Program-made: the position numbers and the translations under genes
In this document: positions 57,119 to 64,000 of the stretch, piece after piece
Numbering within the stretch: position 1 is the first letter of the stretch
How the letters are laid out: each line of letters opens with the position of its first letter
Assembly (NCBI GenBank): GCA_036510875.1
Contig: DATCDE010000007.1
Span: 3,055 to 67,054 of the forward strand
Length of the DNA: 64,000 bases
DNA from: Actinomycetes bacterium
Lineage (GTDB): Bacteria > Actinomycetota > Actinomycetes > Prado026
Reading direction: 5' to 3'
Notes under the pieces: model-generated
The model's database searches: none
What the model was told of the DNA's origin: nothing
Seen by the model: only the letters and a program-made list of their open reading frames with translations

Positions 57119-57430
57119 GTGACCCGACGCTACGCGGACCCGGTGCGCGACGCCGTCGACGTCCGCCGCGACCAGTCCGGCCAACGTCCGGTCCAGTTCC
57201 TGTGGCGGGGCCGGCTGTACCTCGTGCGCGACGTGCTGGCGCACTGGGTCGAGGTCGGGGCCTGGTGGCGGCAGCGCGGCGCCGACGGGCTGCCCGTGCG
57301 GGTCGACGAGGCGGGCCGGCAGGTGTGGCGGGTGGAGGCCGGGGCCGGCCGGGCCGCGGCGTCCGGGGTCTACGACCTCGCCTACGACGAGAGCGCGCGG
57401 ACGTGGACCCTCGCCCGCACGCTGGACTGA
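57119..57430 (+). CDS. Small conserved actinobacterial protein (DUF6504-like) paired with the downstream HEPN gene.
   Basis: 103 aa, Trp/Arg-rich (FLWRGRLYLVRDVLAHWVEVGAWWRQ). GTG start. 12-bp gap to the next gene. Confidence 0.45.
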   Translation: MTRRYADPVRDAVDVRRDQSGQRPVQFLWRGRLYLVRDVLAHWVEVGAWWRQRGADGLPVRVDEAGRQVWRVEAGAGRAAASGVYDLAYDESARTWTLARTLD

Positions 57431-57442
57431 CCGGGAGGGACT

Positions 57443-57883
57443 GTGGAGATGCCCGTGGTGATGCCCGTCGTCATTCCCAGGGCGCCCGTGGGGCCGGCGT
57501 CCCACGAGCTGCTCGAGGCGGCCCGGCGCGGACTGGTCGAGGCGGCCACCGCGCCCACCCCGGCCGAGCGGTACGTCGCGGCGCACCTGGCGGCGCTGCG
57601 GGCGGCCGCTGCGGTGCTGGCCGCACGGGCCCGGCCCGGCAGTGCCCGGCGCGGCCCGCGCAGCGCCTGGGAGCTGCTGCCCCAGGTGGCACCCGAGCTC
57701 AGCGAGTGGGCCGCGTTCTTCGCCGCGGGGGCGGGCAAGCGGGCCGCCGCAGAGGCCGGACTGACCAGGGCGGTCAGCGCCCGCGAGGCCGACGACCTGC
57801 TGCGCGACGCCGCGACCTTCCTCGCACTGGTGGCCACCACCCTCGGGGTGCCGCACCAGGACACCTTCCCGCTGGTGGGCTGA
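57443..57883 (+). CDS. SAV_6107-family HEPN-domain protein.
   Basis: SHELLEAARRGLVEAATAPTPAERYVAAHLAALRAAAAVLAARAR matches my recollection of the SAV_6107 HEPN family N-terminus. Confidence 0.5.
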   Translation: MEMPVVMPVVIPRAPVGPASHELLEAARRGLVEAATAPTPAERYVAAHLAALRAAAAVLAARARPGSARRGPRSAWELLPQVAPELSEWAAFFAAGAGKRAAAEAGLTRAVSAREADDLLRDAATFLALVATTLGVPHQDTFPLVG

Positions 57884-58046: not shown

Positions 58047-58919
58047 ATGCAGACACCCGCGGAGATCGACTACGCGCGAGCGAGCAGTGTCGACCAAGCG
58101 ATCGCCTTGCTCGAGGAACACGGTGAGGATGCGCGGATCATCGCGGGTGGGCACAGCCTGCTGCCGATGATGAAGCTGCGCCTGGCCCGGCCTGAGTGGA
58201 TCATCGACATCAACGACCTGCACGAGCTGCGGGCCATCCGGGTCGAGAGCGGGGAGCTCGTGCTCGGCGCCCTGACCCGGCACGCCGACGTGCTCGAGTC
58301 ACCCGTCGTGGGCGAGCACTATCCGATCCTGATCGACGCCGAGCGGGTCATCGCCGACCCGGTCGTGCGCAACCGGGGCACGGTGGGCGGCTCGTTCTGC
58401 CAGGCCGACCCTGCGGAGGACCTCGCCGCCGTCGGCTCGGCGCTGCGGGCGAACGTCGTCATCCGCTCCTCCAGCGGCACCCGCACGGTGCCGGCCCGGG
58501 AGTTCCACACCGGCCCCTACGAGACCGAGGTCGGCCCGGCCGAGCTGCTCGTCGAGGTGCGCATCCCGATCCGGCCGTCCGCGGGCAGCGCCTACGAGAA
58601 GGTCGAGCGTCGGGCCGGTGACTGGGCGATCGCCGCGGCCGGTGCCTTCGTCGAGCTGTCCGGCGGCGTGGTCTCGGACGTCGGCATCGGACTGTCCGCG
58701 GTCGGGGCCCGGCACTACTGCGCGGCCGAGGCCGAGGAGTTCCTGCGCGGCCAGGCGCCCACCCCGGAGAACCTGGCCGAGGCCGGGCGGATCGCGGCCG
58801 AGCACTGCTCGCCGACGTCCGACCAGCGGGGGCCGGTCGACTACAAGCGCCATCTCGTCGGCGAGCTGACGAAACGAGCACTGAGCCGATCGCTCGAGCG
58901 AGCTGGAGGGGGAGCCTGA
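58047..58919 (+). CDS. coxM: CO dehydrogenase medium (FAD-binding) subunit CoxM.
   Basis: IIAGGHSLLPMMKLRLARP, VRNRGTVGGS FAD-binding motifs, and a CO_deh_flav_C-like C-terminus. RBS AGAGGGGA. Confidence 0.85.
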   Translation: MQTPAEIDYARASSVDQAIALLEEHGEDARIIAGGHSLLPMMKLRLARPEWIIDINDLHELRAIRVESGELVLGALTRHADVLESPVVGEHYPILIDAERVIADPVVRNRGTVGGSFCQADPAEDLAAVGSALRANVVIRSSSGTRTVPAREFHTGPYETEVGPAELLVEVRIPIRPSAGSAYEKVERRAGDWAIAAAGAFVELSGGVVSDVGIGLSAVGARHYCAAEAEEFLRGQAPTPENLAEAGRIAAEHCSPTSDQRGPVDYKRHLVGELTKRALSRSLERAGGGA

Positions 58920-59404
58920 TGCAGGTCACCATGACGGTCAACGGCACGCAGGTCACGCGTGACGTCGAGCCGCGGATGCTGCTCGTGCACTTCGTGCGCG
59001 ACGAGCTGCGACTGACCGGCACCCACTGGGGCTGCGACACCTCCAACTGCGGCACCTGCGTGCTGTGGGTGGACGGCGAGCCGGTGAAGAGCTGCACGGT
59101 GCTCACGGTGATGGCCGACGGCCACGAGGTCACCACCGTGGAGGCCCTGGCGAAGGGCGGCCAGCTGGACCCGGTGCAGCAGGGGTTCATGGAGGAGCAC
59201 GGACTGCAGTGCGGCTTCTGCACCCCCGGGATGATGATGACCGCCCGCTGGCTGCTGGACCGCAACCCGGACCCGGACGAGGGCACCATCCGCGAGGCCA
59301 TCTCCGGGCAGATCTGCCGCTGCACCGGCTACGAGAACATCGTCCGCGCCATCCGCTGGGCGGCCGAGCACCCCGCACCGGCCAATGAGGAGGTCCAGGC
59401 ATGA
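58919..59404 (+). CDS. coxS: CO dehydrogenase small (2Fe-2S) subunit CoxS.
   Basis: CDTSNCGTCVLWVDG and QCGFCTPGM...CRCTGY Cys clusters. Confidence 0.9.
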   Translation: MQVTMTVNGTQVTRDVEPRMLLVHFVRDELRLTGTHWGCDTSNCGTCVLWVDGEPVKSCTVLTVMADGHEVTTVEALAKGGQLDPVQQGFMEEHGLQCGFCTPGMMMTARWLLDRNPDPDEGTIREAISGQICRCTGYENIVRAIRWAAEHPAPANEEVQA

Positions 59405-61803
59405 CCGCCGTCGACGAGACCCCCGCCGTACCGATCAGCGCGGCCGGCAACCCCATCGGCTTCGGCCGGATGCTCCGCAAGGAGGACGTCCGGTTCGTCC
59501 GCGGCCACGGCAACTACGTCGACGACATCGCGCTGCCCGGGATGCTGCACGCGGCGATCCTGCGCAGCCCGTTCGCGCACGCGAAGATCGTGTCGATCGA
59601 CACCTCGGCCGCTGAGGCGCACCCGAAGGTCAAGGCGGTCATCACGGGCAAGATCCTGGAAACCCTCAAGCTGGCCTGGATGCCCACCCTGTCGATGGAC
59701 GTCCAGGCGGTGCTGGCGACCGACAAGGTCCGCTTCCACGGCCAGGAGGTCGCCTTCGTGGTGGCCGAGGACAAGTACTCCGCCCGGGACGCCCTCGAGC
59801 TGATCGACGTCGAGTACGAGCCGCTGCCCGCCGTCGTCGACGCCAAGAAGTCGCTCGACCCCGGTGCGCCGGTGATCCGCGACGACATCGAGGGCAAGAC
59901 CGACAACCACATCTTCGACTGGGAGGCCGGCGACAAGGCGTTGGCCGACGAGGTGTTCGCCAACGCCGAGGTTGTCGTCAGCCAGCAGATGCTCTACCCG
60001 CGGGTGCACCCCAGCCCGATGGAGACCTGCGGCACGGTCGCCAGCATGGACCCGATCACCGGCAAGCTCACCGTCTGGTCCACCAACCAGGCGCCGCACG
60101 CGCACCGGACGCTGTACGCGATCGTGGCCGGCATCCCCGAGCAGAAGATCCAGATCATCTCGCCGGACATCGGCGGCGGCTTCGGCGGCAAGGTCGGCAT
60201 CTACCCCGGCTACGTGCTCGCGGTGGTCGGCTCGATCGTCACCGGCCAGCCGGTCAAGTGGGTCGAGGACCGCAGCGAGAACCTCATGTCCACCGCGTTC
60301 GCCCGTGACTACCACATGAACGGCTCGATCGCGGCGACACGCGACGGCAAGATCCTCGGTCTGCGGGTCGACGTGCTCGCCGACCACGGCGCGTTCAACG
60401 GGACGGCGCAGCCGACCAAGTTCCCGGCCGGCTTCTTCCACATCTTCACCGGCAGCTACGACCTGCAGGCCGCGCACTGCAAGGTCACCGGCGTCTACAC
60501 CAACAAGGCGCCCGGCGGCGTCGCCTACGCCTGCTCGTTCCGGGTCACCGAGGCGGTGTACCTGGTCGAGCGCATGGTCGACGTCCTGGCCGACGAGCTC
60601 GGCATGGACCCGGCCGAGCTGCGGCTGAAGAACCTGCTGCGCCCCGAGCAGTTCCCGTACACCACCAAGACCGGTTGGGAGTACGACTCCGGCGACTACC
60701 CCCGTGCCCTGCGCAAGGCCATGGACATGGTCGGCTACGACCAGCTGCGGGCGGAGCAGGCCGAGAAGCGGGCCCGCGGCGAGCTCATGGGCATCGGGAT
60801 CAGCTTCTTCACCGAGGGCGTGGGCGCCGGCCCGCGCAAGCACATGGACATCCTCGGGCTGGGCATGGCCGACGGCTGCGAGCTTCGGGTGCACCCCACC
60901 GGCAAGGCGCAGATCCGGCTCAGCGTGCAGACCCAGGGCCAGGGCCACGAGACGACGTTCGCGCAGATCGTCTCGCACGAGCTCGGGATCCCGCCCGAGG
61001 ACGTCGAGGTGATCCACGGGGACACCGACAACACCCCCTTCGGCCTGGGCACCTATGGGTCGCGCTCGACGCCGGTGTCCGGCGCCGCCGCGGCGGTGGT
61101 GTCCCGGCGGATCAGGGACAAGGCCCGGATCATCGCGGCGGCCGCCCTCGAGGTCTCGGTCGACGACCTGGAGTGGGAGCTCGGCCGCTGGTACGTCAAG
61201 GGCGACCCGGACAAGGGCAAGACGATCAGCGAGATCGCTATGCTCAGCCACGGCGTCCTCGAACTGCCGGAGGGGGTCGAGGGCCACCTCGACGCCTCGG
61301 TGGTCTACGACCCGCCGAACCTCACCTATCCGTTCGGGGCCTACATCTGCGTCGTCGACGTCGACCCGGGCACGGGTGTGGTCAAGGTGCGCCGGTTCGT
61401 CGCGGTCGACGACTGCGGGCCGCGGATCAACCCGATGATCGTCGAGGGCCAGGTGCACGGCGGCCTGGCCGACGGTGTGGGCATGGCGCTCATGCAGCTC
61501 ATGGCGTTCGACGAGAACGGCACCCACCTCGGCGGGTCGTTCATGGACTACCTGCTGCCCAGCTCGATGGAGTGCCCGAGCTGGGAGACTGGCGAGACCG
61601 TGACCCCGTCCCCGCACCACCCGCTGGGGGTCAAGGGGGTGGGCGAGTCGGCCACGGTGGGCTCGCCGCCCGCGGTCGTCAACGCGATAATCGACGCGCT
61701 GGAGCCGTACGGTGTCCGGCACGCCGACATGCCGCTGACCCCGGCCAACGTGTGGCTGGCCATGCAGGGCCGGCAGCTGCGCAACGACCTCGCCGTGCCG
61801 TGA
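59401..61803 (+). CDS. coxL: CO dehydrogenase large (molybdopterin) subunit CoxL, form-I-like, with a variant active-site loop.
   Basis: 800 aa xanthine-dehydrogenase-family MoCo subunit. The active-site loop GGVAYACSFR matches the form I VAYRCSFR motif except R->A. Gene order M-S-L is the form I order. Confidence 0.85.
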   Translation: MTAVDETPAVPISAAGNPIGFGRMLRKEDVRFVRGHGNYVDDIALPGMLHAAILRSPFAHAKIVSIDTSAAEAHPKVKAVITGKILETLKLAWMPTLSMDVQAVLATDKVRFHGQEVAFVVAEDKYSARDALELIDVEYEPLPAVVDAKKSLDPGAPVIRDDIEGKTDNHIFDWEAGDKALADEVFANAEVVVSQQMLYPRVHPSPMETCGTVASMDPITGKLTVWSTNQAPHAHRTLYAIVAGIPEQKIQIISPDIGGGFGGKVGIYPGYVLAVVGSIVTGQPVKWVEDRSENLMSTAFARDYHMNGSIAATRDGKILGLRVDVLADHGAFNGTAQPTKFPAGFFHIFTGSYDLQAAHCKVTGVYTNKAPGGVAYACSFRVTEAVYLVERMVDVLADELGMDPAELRLKNLLRPEQFPYTTKTGWEYDSGDYPRALRKAMDMVGYDQLRAEQAEKRARGELMGIGISFFTEGVGAGPRKHMDILGLGMADGCELRVHPTGKAQIRLSVQTQGQGHETTFAQIVSHELGIPPEDVEVIHGDTDNTPFGLGTYGSRSTPVSGAAAAVVSRRIRDKARIIAAAALEVSVDDLEWELGRWYVKGDPDKGKTISEIAMLSHGVLELPEGVEGHLDASVVYDPPNLTYPFGAYICVVDVDPGTGVVKVRRFVAVDDCGPRINPMIVEGQVHGGLADGVGMALMQLMAFDENGTHLGGSFMDYLLPSSMECPSWETGETVTPSPHHPLGVKGVGESATVGSPPAVVNAIIDALEPYGVRHADMPLTPANVWLAMQGRQLRNDLAVP

Positions 61804-62708
61804 GGACCGACGTGGTCGCCGAGCGGGCCGCTGCGCTGCGGGCGCAGCGGGTCCCGTTCGTGCACGCCCGGGTGGTGCTGGCCGAGCGTCCGACGTCGGC
61901 CAAGCCGGGGGCCGAGGCCGTGATCTTCGCCGACGGCACCATCGAGGGATTCGTGGGGGGGACCTGCGCCGAGTCGACCGTGCGGGCGCAGAGCCTGGCC
62001 CTGCTCGACTCGGGGGAGCCGCTGCTGCTGCGGATCTGCCCCGAGCCGGAAGCTCCCCAGCCGGGGCGGCTGACCGTGCACAACCCGTGCCTGTCGGGAG
62101 GCACTCTGGAGATCTTCCTGCAGCCGGTGATACCGGCGCCGCTGCTCGTGGTGGTGGGCGAGACCCCCATCGCGGCTGCGCTGGCTGAGCTCGCGGCGGC
62201 CTTGGGCTACCAGGTCGAGCGCCGTGACCCCCGGAACGGCGTGGACGTGGTGCCCGAGGTCGCCGCGGCCGTGGTGGTGGCCTCGCACGGCCGCGACGAG
62301 GAGCCGGTGCTCGCCGCGGCACTGCAGGCGGGCACGCCGTACGTGGGGCTGGTCGCCAGCCGCAAGCGGGGGGAGGCGGTGCTCCTCTCCCTCGACGTCG
62401 ACGCGGCGGCCCGCACCCAGGTGCACACCCCGGCCGGCCTGGACATCGGGGCCCGCACCCCGGAGGAGGTCGCCCTGTCGATCCTGGCCGAGGTGGTGTC
62501 CGAGCGGCGCCGCCCGTCCGGCCGGCCGATCACGCTGGACCTCGAGCCGGTCGGCCCGGCCACGGCCATCGACCTGATCTGCGGCATGTCGGTGGCGATG
62601 GTCGACTCCTCGCTGCACCTGGACCACGAGGGCACCCGCTACTGGTTCTGCGGCAGCGGCTGCCTGCGTGCGTTCGCCGCCGACCCGGCCAGCTACGTCC
62701 CGGCGTGA
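61800..62708 (+). CDS. XdhC/CoxI/CoxF-family MoCo-insertion accessory protein fused to a C-terminal YHS/TRASH metal-binding domain.
   Basis: N-terminal XdhC_CoxI and Rossmann-like segments. The C-terminus CGMSVAMVDSSLHLDHEGTRYWFCGSGCLRAF is a YHS-type motif. GTG start overlaps the coxL stop. Confidence 0.7.
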   Translation: MRTDVVAERAAALRAQRVPFVHARVVLAERPTSAKPGAEAVIFADGTIEGFVGGTCAESTVRAQSLALLDSGEPLLLRICPEPEAPQPGRLTVHNPCLSGGTLEIFLQPVIPAPLLVVVGETPIAAALAELAAALGYQVERRDPRNGVDVVPEVAAAVVVASHGRDEEPVLAAALQAGTPYVGLVASRKRGEAVLLSLDVDAAARTQVHTPAGLDIGARTPEEVALSILAEVVSERRRPSGRPITLDLEPVGPATAIDLICGMSVAMVDSSLHLDHEGTRYWFCGSGCLRAFAADPASYVPA

Positions 62709-63607
62709 CCGACGCCCTGGGCGACCTGGCCGCGCTGGTCCCGGACGTCGCCTCGCTGCGCCAGCGGCTGGGGGACGCCGGCTACCTGGCCGACTCGGGG
62801 CTGGCCACGGCGTTGTTCTGCGCCGTCCGGCTGCCCCAGCCGCTGCTGCTCGAGGGGGAGGCGGGGGTCGGCAAGACCCAAGCCGCGAAGGCGCTGGCCG
62901 AGGTGCTGGACACCCGGCTCATCCGGCTGCAGTGCTACGAGGGCATCGACGCGGCCGAGGCGCTGTACGAGTGGAACTACCCGCGGCAGCTGCTGGGGAT
63001 CCGGCTGGCCGAGGCGCGCGGCGGCCCGGTGGCCGAGGAGGACCTGTTCGGCCGGGACTACCTGGTGCGCCGGCCGCTACTCGAGGCGATCGAGCATGCC
63101 GGCCCGCGGCCGGCCGTGCTGCTCATCGACGAGGTGGACCGCGCCGACGAGGAGTTCGAGGCGTTCCTGTTCGAGCTGCTCGCCGAGGCGGCCATCACGA
63201 TTCCCGAGCTGGGCACGGTGCGGGCCGAGCGGCCGCCGCTCGTGGTGCTCACGTCCAACCGCACCCGCGACCTGCACGACGCGCTCAAGCGGCGCTGCCT
63301 GTACCACTGGATCGACTACCCCGACCTCGACCGGGCCATCGAGATCATCCGGCGGCGGGTGCCGGGGGCGACCCTCGACATCACGGCCGGGGCGGCCGCG
63401 GCCGTGGGCCGGCTGCGGGCGCTCGACGTCCAAAAGCCGCCGGGGGTGGCCGAGGCGATCGACTGGGTGCAGGCGCTGACCCTGCTCGGCGTGCAGACCC
63501 TCGACGGCGAGGCCGCCGAGCAGACGCTGGGGTCGGTGCTGAAGTACCGCGAGGACCACGACGTCGCCCGTGAGCGCGGGCTGGCCTGGGTGACCGGGAG
63601 TGGCTGA
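62705..63607 (+). CDS. coxD: MoxR-like AAA+ ATPase CoxD.
   Basis: LLLEGEAGVGKTQAAKALA Walker A, LLIDEVDRADEE Walker B, and the AAA_3 pattern. Confidence 0.85.
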   Translation: MTDALGDLAALVPDVASLRQRLGDAGYLADSGLATALFCAVRLPQPLLLEGEAGVGKTQAAKALAEVLDTRLIRLQCYEGIDAAEALYEWNYPRQLLGIRLAEARGGPVAEEDLFGRDYLVRRPLLEAIEHAGPRPAVLLIDEVDRADEEFEAFLFELLAEAAITIPELGTVRAERPPLVVLTSNRTRDLHDALKRRCLYHWIDYPDLDRAIEIIRRRVPGATLDITAGAAAAVGRLRALDVQKPPGVAEAIDWVQALTLLGVQTLDGEAAEQTLGSVLKYREDHDVARERGLAWVTGSG

Positions 63608-64000
63608 CCTGGCCACCGCGGCGGCGTCGTTCGGGGCGCTGCTGCACGCGGGTGGGGTGCCGGTCACCCCCGAGCGCAGCGCCCGCTTCGCCGACTCGGT
63701 GCTGCTGGCCGACCCGCTCACGGTCGACGAGCTGTACTGGCTGGCCCGAGTGACGCTGCTGTCGACGCACGGCCAGGTCGACCTGTTCGACCGGGCCTTC
63801 GACCAGGTGTTCCGCGGCTTCGTCGACGTGGCCGACGACCGCGGGGACACCAGCCAGCCGCCGCCCCCGAACACCCGGCCCGGTTCGGACCGGGCGCCGT
63901 CCAAGGACAGCCGGGCGGGTACGGCGCCGTCCCCCCAGCCGAGCGCGACGTCGTCGGGGGACGGCCGCGACGAGGACGGTCCGGAGACCGTGCTCGCGGC
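63600..64000 (+). CDS. coxE: CoxE-like VWA-domain protein. Only the N-terminal part is in the window.
   Basis: GTG start overlaps the coxD stop. The N-terminus (VADLATAAASFGALLHAGGVPVTPERSARFADSVLL...) is typical of CoxE/VWA proteins that follow CoxD. Confidence 0.6.
   Translation, partial: MADLATAAASFGALLHAGGVPVTPERSARFADSVLLADPLTVDELYWLARVTLLSTHGQVDLFDRAFDQVFRGFVDVADDRGDTSQPPPPNTRPGSDRAPSKDSRAGTAPSPQPSATSSGDGRDEDGPETVLA

Follow-up and report, generated by a model that had tools for sequence, protein, structure and literature searches.

An XdhC-family maturation factor with a YHS/TRASH-type domain fused to its C-terminus is encoded directly after coxL, the gene for the large subunit of form I (Mo-Cu) CO dehydrogenase, in the 64,000-nucleotide stretch of actinobacterial DNA analysed here (contig DATCDE010000007.1, assembly GCA_036510875.1; referred to below as the window). 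The gene is coxF, and we put at roughly 60% the probability that its product is a copper-delivering factor in which the tethered YHS domain is the carrier of Cu(I). This reading is strengthened because the fusion was seen only beside CoxL proteins with the copper loop and was absent from CoxI-type paralogs, and because in one lineage a short Cys-Cys-His (CCH) tail replaces the YHS domain. It is also strengthened by a ligand-for-ligand alignment with the N-terminal YHS domain of copper/heavy-metal P-type ATPases. Coordinates of all features are collected in Table 1.

Assignment of the C-terminal domain is narrow for the window sequence and firm for the family. The Pfam YHS model (PF04945, cut-off 30.3 bits) gave 31.1 bits for the whole protein and 34.8 bits (E 1.7e-8) for its C-terminal 68 residues alone, while the homologous domain reached 58 bits in the Thermomicrobium protein and 39 bits in that of Paraburkholderia; TRASH sub-models stayed under their thresholds for the window protein. 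The sequence-only reading had proposed a YHS/TRASH-type C-terminus from the string CGMSV...HEGTRYWFCGSGC. This is borne out, since the string is present in the protein and yields the ligand pattern D258-x2-C261-x22-C284-x3-C288, and since profile search (narrowly), ligand pattern and predicted fold agree. A genome scan returned more than 574 relatives, of which the best 80, all metagenome-assembled genomes (MAGs) of Actinomycetota, were kept. Residues D258, C261, M263, V265, H273, F283, C284, G287 and C288 were unchanged in 80/80 of these genomes, and H276 is also conserved in the domain. Mean pairwise identity across the 80 was 0.80 for the XdhC_CoxI domain, 0.63 for the Rossmann domain, 0.35 for the linker and 0.70 for the YHS domain, which puts conservation of YHS on a par with that of the XdhC core. 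The spacer, counted from residue 233 up to but excluding C261, was 24 to 56 residues long. A chance pattern of cysteines in the tail was ruled out by the profile E value and the invariant ligands.

Structure prediction gave the same division of the protein. In the full-length AlphaFold model of CoxF a confident XdhC body is followed by a linker with a predicted local distance difference test score (pLDDT) below 50 and by a C-terminal domain that is folded separately. Modelled in isolation (pLDDT 90.4), the YHS domain has a small, beta-rich, treble-clef-like fold of four short strands and one helix. The best Foldseek matches of this model were known YHS/TRASH folds; the top 50 included the YHS regions at the C-termini of phenol hydroxylase and of the ToMO, T4MO and sMMO hydroxylases, as well as L24e and the TRASH domain of ZMYM5, with query-normalised TM-scores of 0.5 to 0.69 and E values of only 0.1 to 1 for a query that is short (56 residues).

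The remainder of the protein is an XdhC body. XdhC_CoxI (PF02625) and XdhC_C (PF13478) scored 59.1 and 88.3 bits, respectively, against cut-offs of 24.3 and 29.7. The model of the body matched the solved XdhC structures 2WE8 and 2WE7 (Foldseek, E 1.7e-14) and 3ON5 (E 5.7e-13), and phmmer aligned the window protein with 2WE7 at E 7.8e-17. Cys56 and Cys97 (in CLSGG, codon 62088-62090) fall in columns that are invariant family-wide (alignment A1). On plasmid pHCG3 of Oligotropha carboxidovorans, CoxF was the sole match to the window protein and the second XdhC gene product, CoxI, was unmatched; phmmer scores were 116 to CoxF and 34 to CoxI. Given the pHCG3 match, these scores and the neighbouring coxD and coxE, the window gene is a coxF ortholog. 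Assignment as CoxI or as a generic XdhC was ruled out by the scores and the gene context. Scores on the NCBIfam equivalogs were far under the cut-offs (90 vs 350 and 20 vs 162).

Members of the XdhC family bind the molybdenum cofactor or dock on enzymes of the xanthine oxidoreductase family. The window coxF lies next to coxMSL, and its product may likewise bind the cofactor or act as a chaperone of such an enzyme. In O. carboxidovorans, insertion mutants in coxE and coxF produce CO dehydrogenase with sulfurated molybdenum and without copper (PMC4240915; Pelzmann et al. 2014), and the copper-free enzyme of the coxF mutant upholds the earlier statement that CoxF-type XdhC proteins are implicated in maturation of the Mo-S-Cu site. 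The same study proposed, from a short motif inside the protein, that CoxF escorts copper (PMC4240915). This motif, M107CPSHGTM, aligns with NPCLSGGT in window CoxF, and its cysteine is conserved throughout the XdhC family, CoxI-type and 2WE7-type proteins included; the cysteine is therefore not copper-specific.

The YHS tail is in frame with the XdhC body, as had been read from the sequence: the coxF open reading frame (ORF) and its translation run without interruption, and independent assemblies from NCBI, JGI, ENA and Logan contain CoxF-YHS proteins that are identical or 99-100% identical to it. A frameshift or assembly artefact was ruled out by the agreement of these assemblies together with conservation of the domain. 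Placement of an XdhC/CoxI-family gene directly after coxL, also part of that reading, is confirmed by the Pfam domains and by the GTG start at 61800, which overlaps the coxL stop codon (GTGA). The coxF stop codon in turn overlaps the coxD start, again as GTGA. An alternative in-frame GTG at 61812, with a GAGGA Shine-Dalgarno-like motif ahead of it (61802-61806), is the start used in other assemblies and gives a product of 298 residues. The choice of start leaves the domain, orthology and distribution results unchanged.

The fusion goes together with the copper enzyme. The gene upstream of coxF in the window encodes a true form I CoxL, with 1366.3 bits on the equivalog TIGR02416 (cut-off 991) and the active-site loop AYACSFR. 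We take AYxCSFR to be the signature of form I CoxL and its cysteine to be the copper ligand, as is established for the family. Among genome loci with the fusion, every readable CoxL loop (74/74) was AYACSFR or AYRCSFR, the others being cut by contig ends; four plasmid reference loci had AYRCSFR and the other readable genome loci AYACSFR. All 26 readable loops of metagenome loci were AYRCSFR, and with further AYxCSFR cases elsewhere the total exceeds 100 loci. One contig (L100) has clusters of both form I and form II (AYRGAGR), and there it is the form I cluster that the fusion gene adjoins. A YHS domain was found in 0/24 CoxI/Rv0376c-type XdhC ORFs of the same loci, and PF04945 in 0/120 proteins from a profile search with the CoxI/Rv0376c type. 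Within these samples, association of the fusion with form I CoxL is exceptionless.

XdhC-YHS is the majority architecture of CoxF outside the Alphaproteobacteria, and the window gene is not unusual. A survey of other cox operons, which the sequence-only reading had named as a check, found the fusion as the majority form: all three Pfam domains were present in 120/120 best homologs from a collection of 5.8 billion proteins, and the three YHS cysteines in 80/80 actinobacterial genome loci, nearly all with the gene order coxM-S-L-F-D-E. These best 80 relatives include Nocardioidaceae, Ilumatobacteraceae, other Acidimicrobiia, Nitriliruptoraceae, Nanopelagicales, Jiangellales, Motilibacteraceae, Geodermatophilaceae and Pedococcus. 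One of them (L047) has a 4-residue insertion in the YHS motif with no cysteine lost. A metagenome sample of 80 contigs, seeded on Thermomicrobium-type sequences and 38-48% identical to the Thermomicrobium protein, had the D-x2-C-x22-C-x3-C motif in 79/80 loci. The fusion is also present in Thermomicrobium roseum (WP_143714800.1), Paraburkholderia aromaticivorans (WP_035477365.1), Caballeronia and the haloarchaeon Natronorubrum bangense and, degenerate, in Deinococcus sp. AJ005; each of these copies that was checked lies within a cluster annotated as aerobic CO dehydrogenase.

To avoid ranking by the YHS domain itself, residues 1-245 only were searched against 1.84 billion cluster representatives. 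The best 150 comprised 85 with a YHS domain by hidden Markov model, about 15 with frameshifted YHS tails and 32 fragments; fragments and frameshifted tails were left out of loss counts. Out-of-frame tails, which read 'RPGVRHD' or 'STRSAA' for 'DPVCGM', were seen in P0141, P0167, P0179, P0190, P0197, P0226, P0233, P0249, P0261 and others, and domain censuses on such frameshifted assemblies will under-count the fusion.

Some CoxF proteins have no YHS domain. It is missing from CoxF of Oligotropha, Bradyrhizobium, Rhizobium jaguaris, Roseivivax and Nonomuraea. In Nonomuraea gerenzanensis (L089, 6001-6696) coxF follows coxMSL and its product is 55% identical to the window protein over the XdhC part. 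This protein ends 14 residues past the Rossmann domain, without YHS, and the gene has no adjacent coxD or coxE; YHS is therefore not universal even within the Actinomycetes. The surroundings of the coxF genes without YHS on pHCG3 and in Nonomuraea were searched for a stand-alone YHS gene, and none was found. Since CoxF proteins with neither YHS nor tail exist, with no stand-alone YHS gene nearby, the domain is dispensable in some lineages.

In other lineages a different cysteine-containing module takes the C-terminal position. About ten YHS-less CoxF-type representatives end in a Cys-Cys motif. A search seeded with one of them gave a CoxF group with Myxococcota, Polyangiales or Deltaproteobacteria names, in which [SH]CCH[DG] (typically ...KGSCCHD) forms the C-terminus of 111 of 120 proteins. 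The CCH tail follows a low-complexity linker, and CoxF of this group (P0246, P0272-P0380) is without YHS. Three CCH-tail genes could be placed on contigs (L090, 9001-9903; L091, 9001-9906; L092, 9001-9984). Each lies directly after a form I coxL with the loop AYRCSFR, and the gene order of the three clusters is coxD-E-G-M-S-L-F. Directly upstream of coxD on the Polyangiaceae contig L092 (449-2140) are genes for a cysteine desulfurase (Aminotran_5) and a NifU_N scaffold, which may be a sulfur donor for the Mo-S-Cu bridge.

Modules are also combined or multiplied. A plasmid of Natronorubrum bangense (L095, 3971-5110) encodes a CoxF of 379 residues that combines an SCCGGG motif with a complete YHS domain (DPVCGM...FCCHGC); the two are separated by an acidic linker, at which the tblastn alignment stopped. 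Two Sporichthyaceae-type proteins, P0080 (450 residues, from a Sporichthyaceae MAG) and P0204, have three tandem YHS domains, each with a complete C-x22-C-x3-C, an arrangement that recalls the repeated metal-binding domains of copper ATPases. In a rough neighbour-joining tree of the XdhC part, used qualitatively only, most of the CoxF clade consists of YHS-bearing sequences. The CCH group falls within these, and the alphaproteobacterial sequences, which have no tail, branch off at the base. Typing of tails by regular expression misfiled Paraburkholderia, Deinococcus and P0121. Because a handful of thiol and imidazole residues can stand in for the folded domain, and because the domain can be repeated in tandem, the C-terminal module of CoxF looks more like an appendage for metal ligation than like a surface for docking.

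Three further representatives have other domains fused to the XdhC body. In P0232 (496 residues) and P0389 (478 residues) it is joined to a MobA/IspD-like nucleotidyltransferase, apparently MocA-like, which would be an enzyme of molybdenum cofactor cytidylylation; in P0232 a CC motif lies between the two parts. P0383 (324 residues) has a 4HBT thioesterase-type domain.

Relatives of the YHS domain point to copper. The ligands of the YHS domain of Mycobacterium phlei adenylyl cyclase are D178, C181, C204 and C208, and the domain confers a specific response to micromolar copper (PMC4626032); CoxF YHS has the same ligand set and spacing. The window YHS is 43-44% identical to the N-terminal YHS of copper/heavy-metal P-type ATPases of Komagataeibacter, and all ligand positions and both conserved histidines align. 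The analysis shows directly the architecture, orthology, conservation and association with form I CoxL; copper as the metal of CoxF YHS, suggested by these shared ligand sets, and hand-over as its function are inferred. An invariant Met beside the first Cys (CGM) is a usual feature of Cu(I) sites, and so are Cys-Cys motifs, as in the CCxC of Cox17.

In the mechanism that we propose, the XdhC body of CoxF would dock on folded, sulfurated apo-CO dehydrogenase that already contains the molybdenum cofactor. The tethered YHS domain would capture Cu(I) through the thiolates of C261, C284 and C288, possibly with the help of M263, H273, H276 or D258, and, while the body is docked, would swing across to pass the ion to Mo-SH and to the cysteine in the active-site loop of CoxL. 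ATP-dependent remodelling would be supplied by the co-transcribed MoxR ATPase CoxD and VWA protein CoxE. A broader proposal is that, outside the Alphaproteobacteria, a tethered thiol-rich module (YHS, CCH, both, or up to three YHS) is the hallmark of CoxF, which would be a dedicated Cu(I) metallochaperone loading Mo-SH by a swinging arm, and that the model organism is atypical; to this we give even odds.

Several points weigh against copper delivery, chiefly the lineages that do without such a module and the solved relatives of the fold, whose sites are not copper sites. The Pfam YHS score of the window protein barely exceeds the cut-off, and the surveys are ranking-limited samples rather than a full census. 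CoxF without YHS or a Cys tail works or exists in O. carboxidovorans, other Alphaproteobacteria and Nonomuraea. In Deinococcus sp. AJ005 (L004, 7983-9044) the YHS-like domain is without the first cysteine (PVDGEE for PVCGM), TCANC replaces FCxxxC and the Pfam score of 29.1 is just under the cut-off; this copy may be in decay. For Cu(I), Asp is an unusual ligand, and phenol hydroxylase has a Zn(Cys)4 site. No copper-loaded YHS structure was among the search matches, the solved relatives there being phenol hydroxylase, toluene monooxygenases, L24e and a MYM zinc finger; the YHS of toluene-4-hydroxylase carries no metal and L24e binds Cd via cysteines (PMC4626032).

These last observations favour the main rival to copper delivery, a structural zinc site: the YHS domain would be a structural zinc or metal-free treble-clef module, providing a docking or adaptor surface for CoxL, CoxD or CoxE. 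None of the nearest solved folds (phenol hydroxylase, toluene monooxygenases, sMMO, L24e and the MYM zinc-finger TRASH domain) is a copper site. However, a docking fold is hardly expected to be replaced by a CCH tail of 4-6 residues on a low-complexity linker, or to be triplicated, and the first ligand is Asp rather than Cys, as in the copper-responsive cyclase and the copper-ATPase type. In addition, M263 and H273 are invariant and H276 is conserved, and the domain was seen only with a copper-containing enzyme class. We consider a zinc or docking module unlikely. A copper or redox sensor, which would switch CoxF activity or its interaction with CoxD or CoxE rather than carry an ion, is improbable. 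CoxF has no known catalytic activity to regulate, its CCH substitution and tandem repeats resemble features of metallochaperones and metal ATPases, and its tether is long and disordered whereas the cyclase linker has 8-11 residues; nevertheless, the YHS of the M. phlei cyclase, the only biochemically studied bacterial one, is a C-terminal Cu-dependent activator module (PMC4626032). The cysteines of YHS or CCH might also carry a persulfide and relay sulfur for Mo=S or the Mo-S-Cu bridge, in keeping with the protection and handling of sulfurated cofactor by XdhC-family proteins (PMC4240915) and with the desulfurase and NifU genes of the CCH-type cluster on L092. This we regard as very improbable: enzyme from the O. 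carboxidovorans coxF mutant was already sulfurated and was without copper only (PMC4240915), XdhC paralogs of other sulfurated Mo enzymes have no YHS, and the domain matches metal-binding families, the sole rhodanese match being at E 0.8.

In the window, overlapping stop and start codons join all six cox genes (TGATG, ATGA, GTGA, GTGA and an 8-nucleotide overlap, at 58917-58919, 59401-59404, 61800-61803, 62705-62708 and 63600-63607; the coxS start and coxM stop share 1 nucleotide), which suggests translational coupling across the operon. The whole cluster is present in the near-identical 62-kb contig L005 as coxM-S-L-F-D-E, followed by unrelated genes. Full coxE in L005 encodes 387 residues with PF05762, and the window coxE ORF matches it at E 2e-84. 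Window CoxD is 53% identical to CoxD of O. carboxidovorans. Within the 64-kb window no second XdhC gene, no second YHS domain and no coxG were found.

Directly upstream of coxM is a DUF6504/HEPN_SAV_6107 gene pair (window 57119-57430 and 57443-57883, forward strand), and genes for a DnaE-like polymerase and an IMS (Y-family) polymerase lie downstream of the cluster in L005 (13901-19121). The cox operon appears to be located between the gene pair and the polymerase genes. In Ilumatobacteraceae (L024, 17300-20550; also L014, L018, L029, L031 and L033) a second set of MoxR, VWA_CoxE and XdhC genes, preceded by two universal-stress-protein genes, follows the form I cluster about 7 kb downstream. 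The XdhC of this set is CoxI-type, split into two ORFs and without YHS, and no partner molybdoenzyme was seen within the locus.

Table 1. Features of the cox operon and of the coxF product (positions are those of the window)
Feature	Position	Strand	Basis
coxM, FAD-binding medium subunit of CO dehydrogenase	58047..58919	+	ORF; FAD_binding_5 + CO_deh_flav_C in near-identical contig L005
coxS, 2x[2Fe-2S] small subunit	58919..59404	+	ORF; Fer2 + Fer2_2 in L005
coxL, form I (Mo-Cu) large subunit	59401..61803	+	TIGR02416; Pfam Ald_Xan_dh_C, MoCoBD_1, MoCoBD_2
CoxL active-site loop AYACSFR, residues 375-381	60523..60543	+	located in coxL translation
coxF	61800..62708	+	302-residue ORF; XdhC-family maturation factor with C-terminal YHS domain
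XdhC_CoxI N-terminal domain, residues 14-78, including Cys56	61839..62033	+	PF02625, 59.1 bits
XdhC_C Rossmann-like domain, residues 116-232	62145..62495	+	PF13478, 88.3 bits
Disordered linker, residues 237-253, tethering YHS	62508..62558	+	pLDDT<50 in AlphaFold model
YHS/TRASH-type domain, residues 257-301	62568..62702	+	PF04945; putative ligands D258, C261, C284, C288
coxD, MoxR-type AAA+ ATPase	62705..63607	+	Pfam AAA_5 + AAA
coxE (VWA_CoxE), 5' part, continuing beyond the window end	63600..64000	+	matches L005 coxE

No paper linking YHS/TRASH with CoxF, XdhC or CO dehydrogenase was found in the open-access literature. CoxF, XdhC and YHS are all unmentioned in the 2025 paper on the Mycobacterium smegmatis enzyme (PMC12202499), and a 2019 paper on CO dehydrogenase of Chloroflexi mentions neither CoxF nor XdhC. 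Thousands of fusion sequences are already public and have automatic domain assignments; one has the NCBI name 'YHS domain-containing protein'. The new part appears to be the XdhC-YHS combination in CoxF and its distribution, the families themselves being known; coxF-YHS is ordinary as a gene and useful as a mechanistic clue.

The only model for the arrival of copper at the Mo-S-Cu site is built on short motifs in proteins of O. carboxidovorans (PMC4240915). With its tethered module, YHS or CCH, most CoxF offers a concrete target for mutation and metal loading, which makes the copper-insertion step directly testable. Maturation of the M. smegmatis enzyme is complex and requires at least four assembly factors, hence its expression at native level and low yield (PMC12202499); the module suggests which accessory genes to co-express for recombinant CO dehydrogenase. 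The enzyme is also ecologically important: oxidation of atmospheric CO by such bacteria removes roughly 250 Tg CO per year (PMC6794299). Copper delivery would give a biochemical role to a widespread, poorly characterised domain. If the broader proposal is true, no earlier YHS domain would have had a defined enzyme client, and the CoxF module would have gone unseen because the textbook model organism is atypical.

CoxF of O. carboxidovorans (Afipia) OM5 (pHCG3, WP_013913733.1) shares XdhC_CoxI and XdhC_C with window CoxF, is about 35% identical to it over the XdhC part and is likewise encoded in a form I cluster with coxD and coxE. In contrast to the window protein, it has 280 residues and neither a YHS domain nor a C-terminal cysteine, and the gene order is coxL-D-E-F rather than coxL-F-D-E. 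Chaperones of the XdhC/CoxI/Rv0376c type (2WE7, 2WE8 and 3ON5; TIGR02964; NF045664) have the same two-domain fold and conserved Cys pair, but the curated models and solved structures are without a YHS domain.

For the YHS domain itself, the solved TRASH/YHS folds (phenol hydroxylase 2INP, ToMO, T4MO, L24e and ZMYM5) resemble the predicted fold and show sequence similarity at E 2e-3. They differ in being integral parts of larger proteins or of the ribosome, with four-Cys or ligand-free sites, and none is linked to copper. The YHS domains of the ATPases and of the M. phlei cyclase share D-x2-C-x22-C-x3-C with CoxF, and in the cyclase the domain is also a C-terminal appendage. In CoxF, however, it is carried by a molybdoenzyme maturation factor on a much longer disordered spacer, and it presumably serves delivery to the active site of an enzyme, not transport as in the ATPases or signalling as in the cyclase.

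MoxR-VWA pairs for metal insertion include NorQ/NorD and the chelatases BchI/BchD and CobS/CobT. Together, coxD and coxE form such a pair, with a proposed ATP-driven remodelling for insertion of metal into a folded target. What is specific to cox is a third partner, of the XdhC type, with a tethered metal-binding module.

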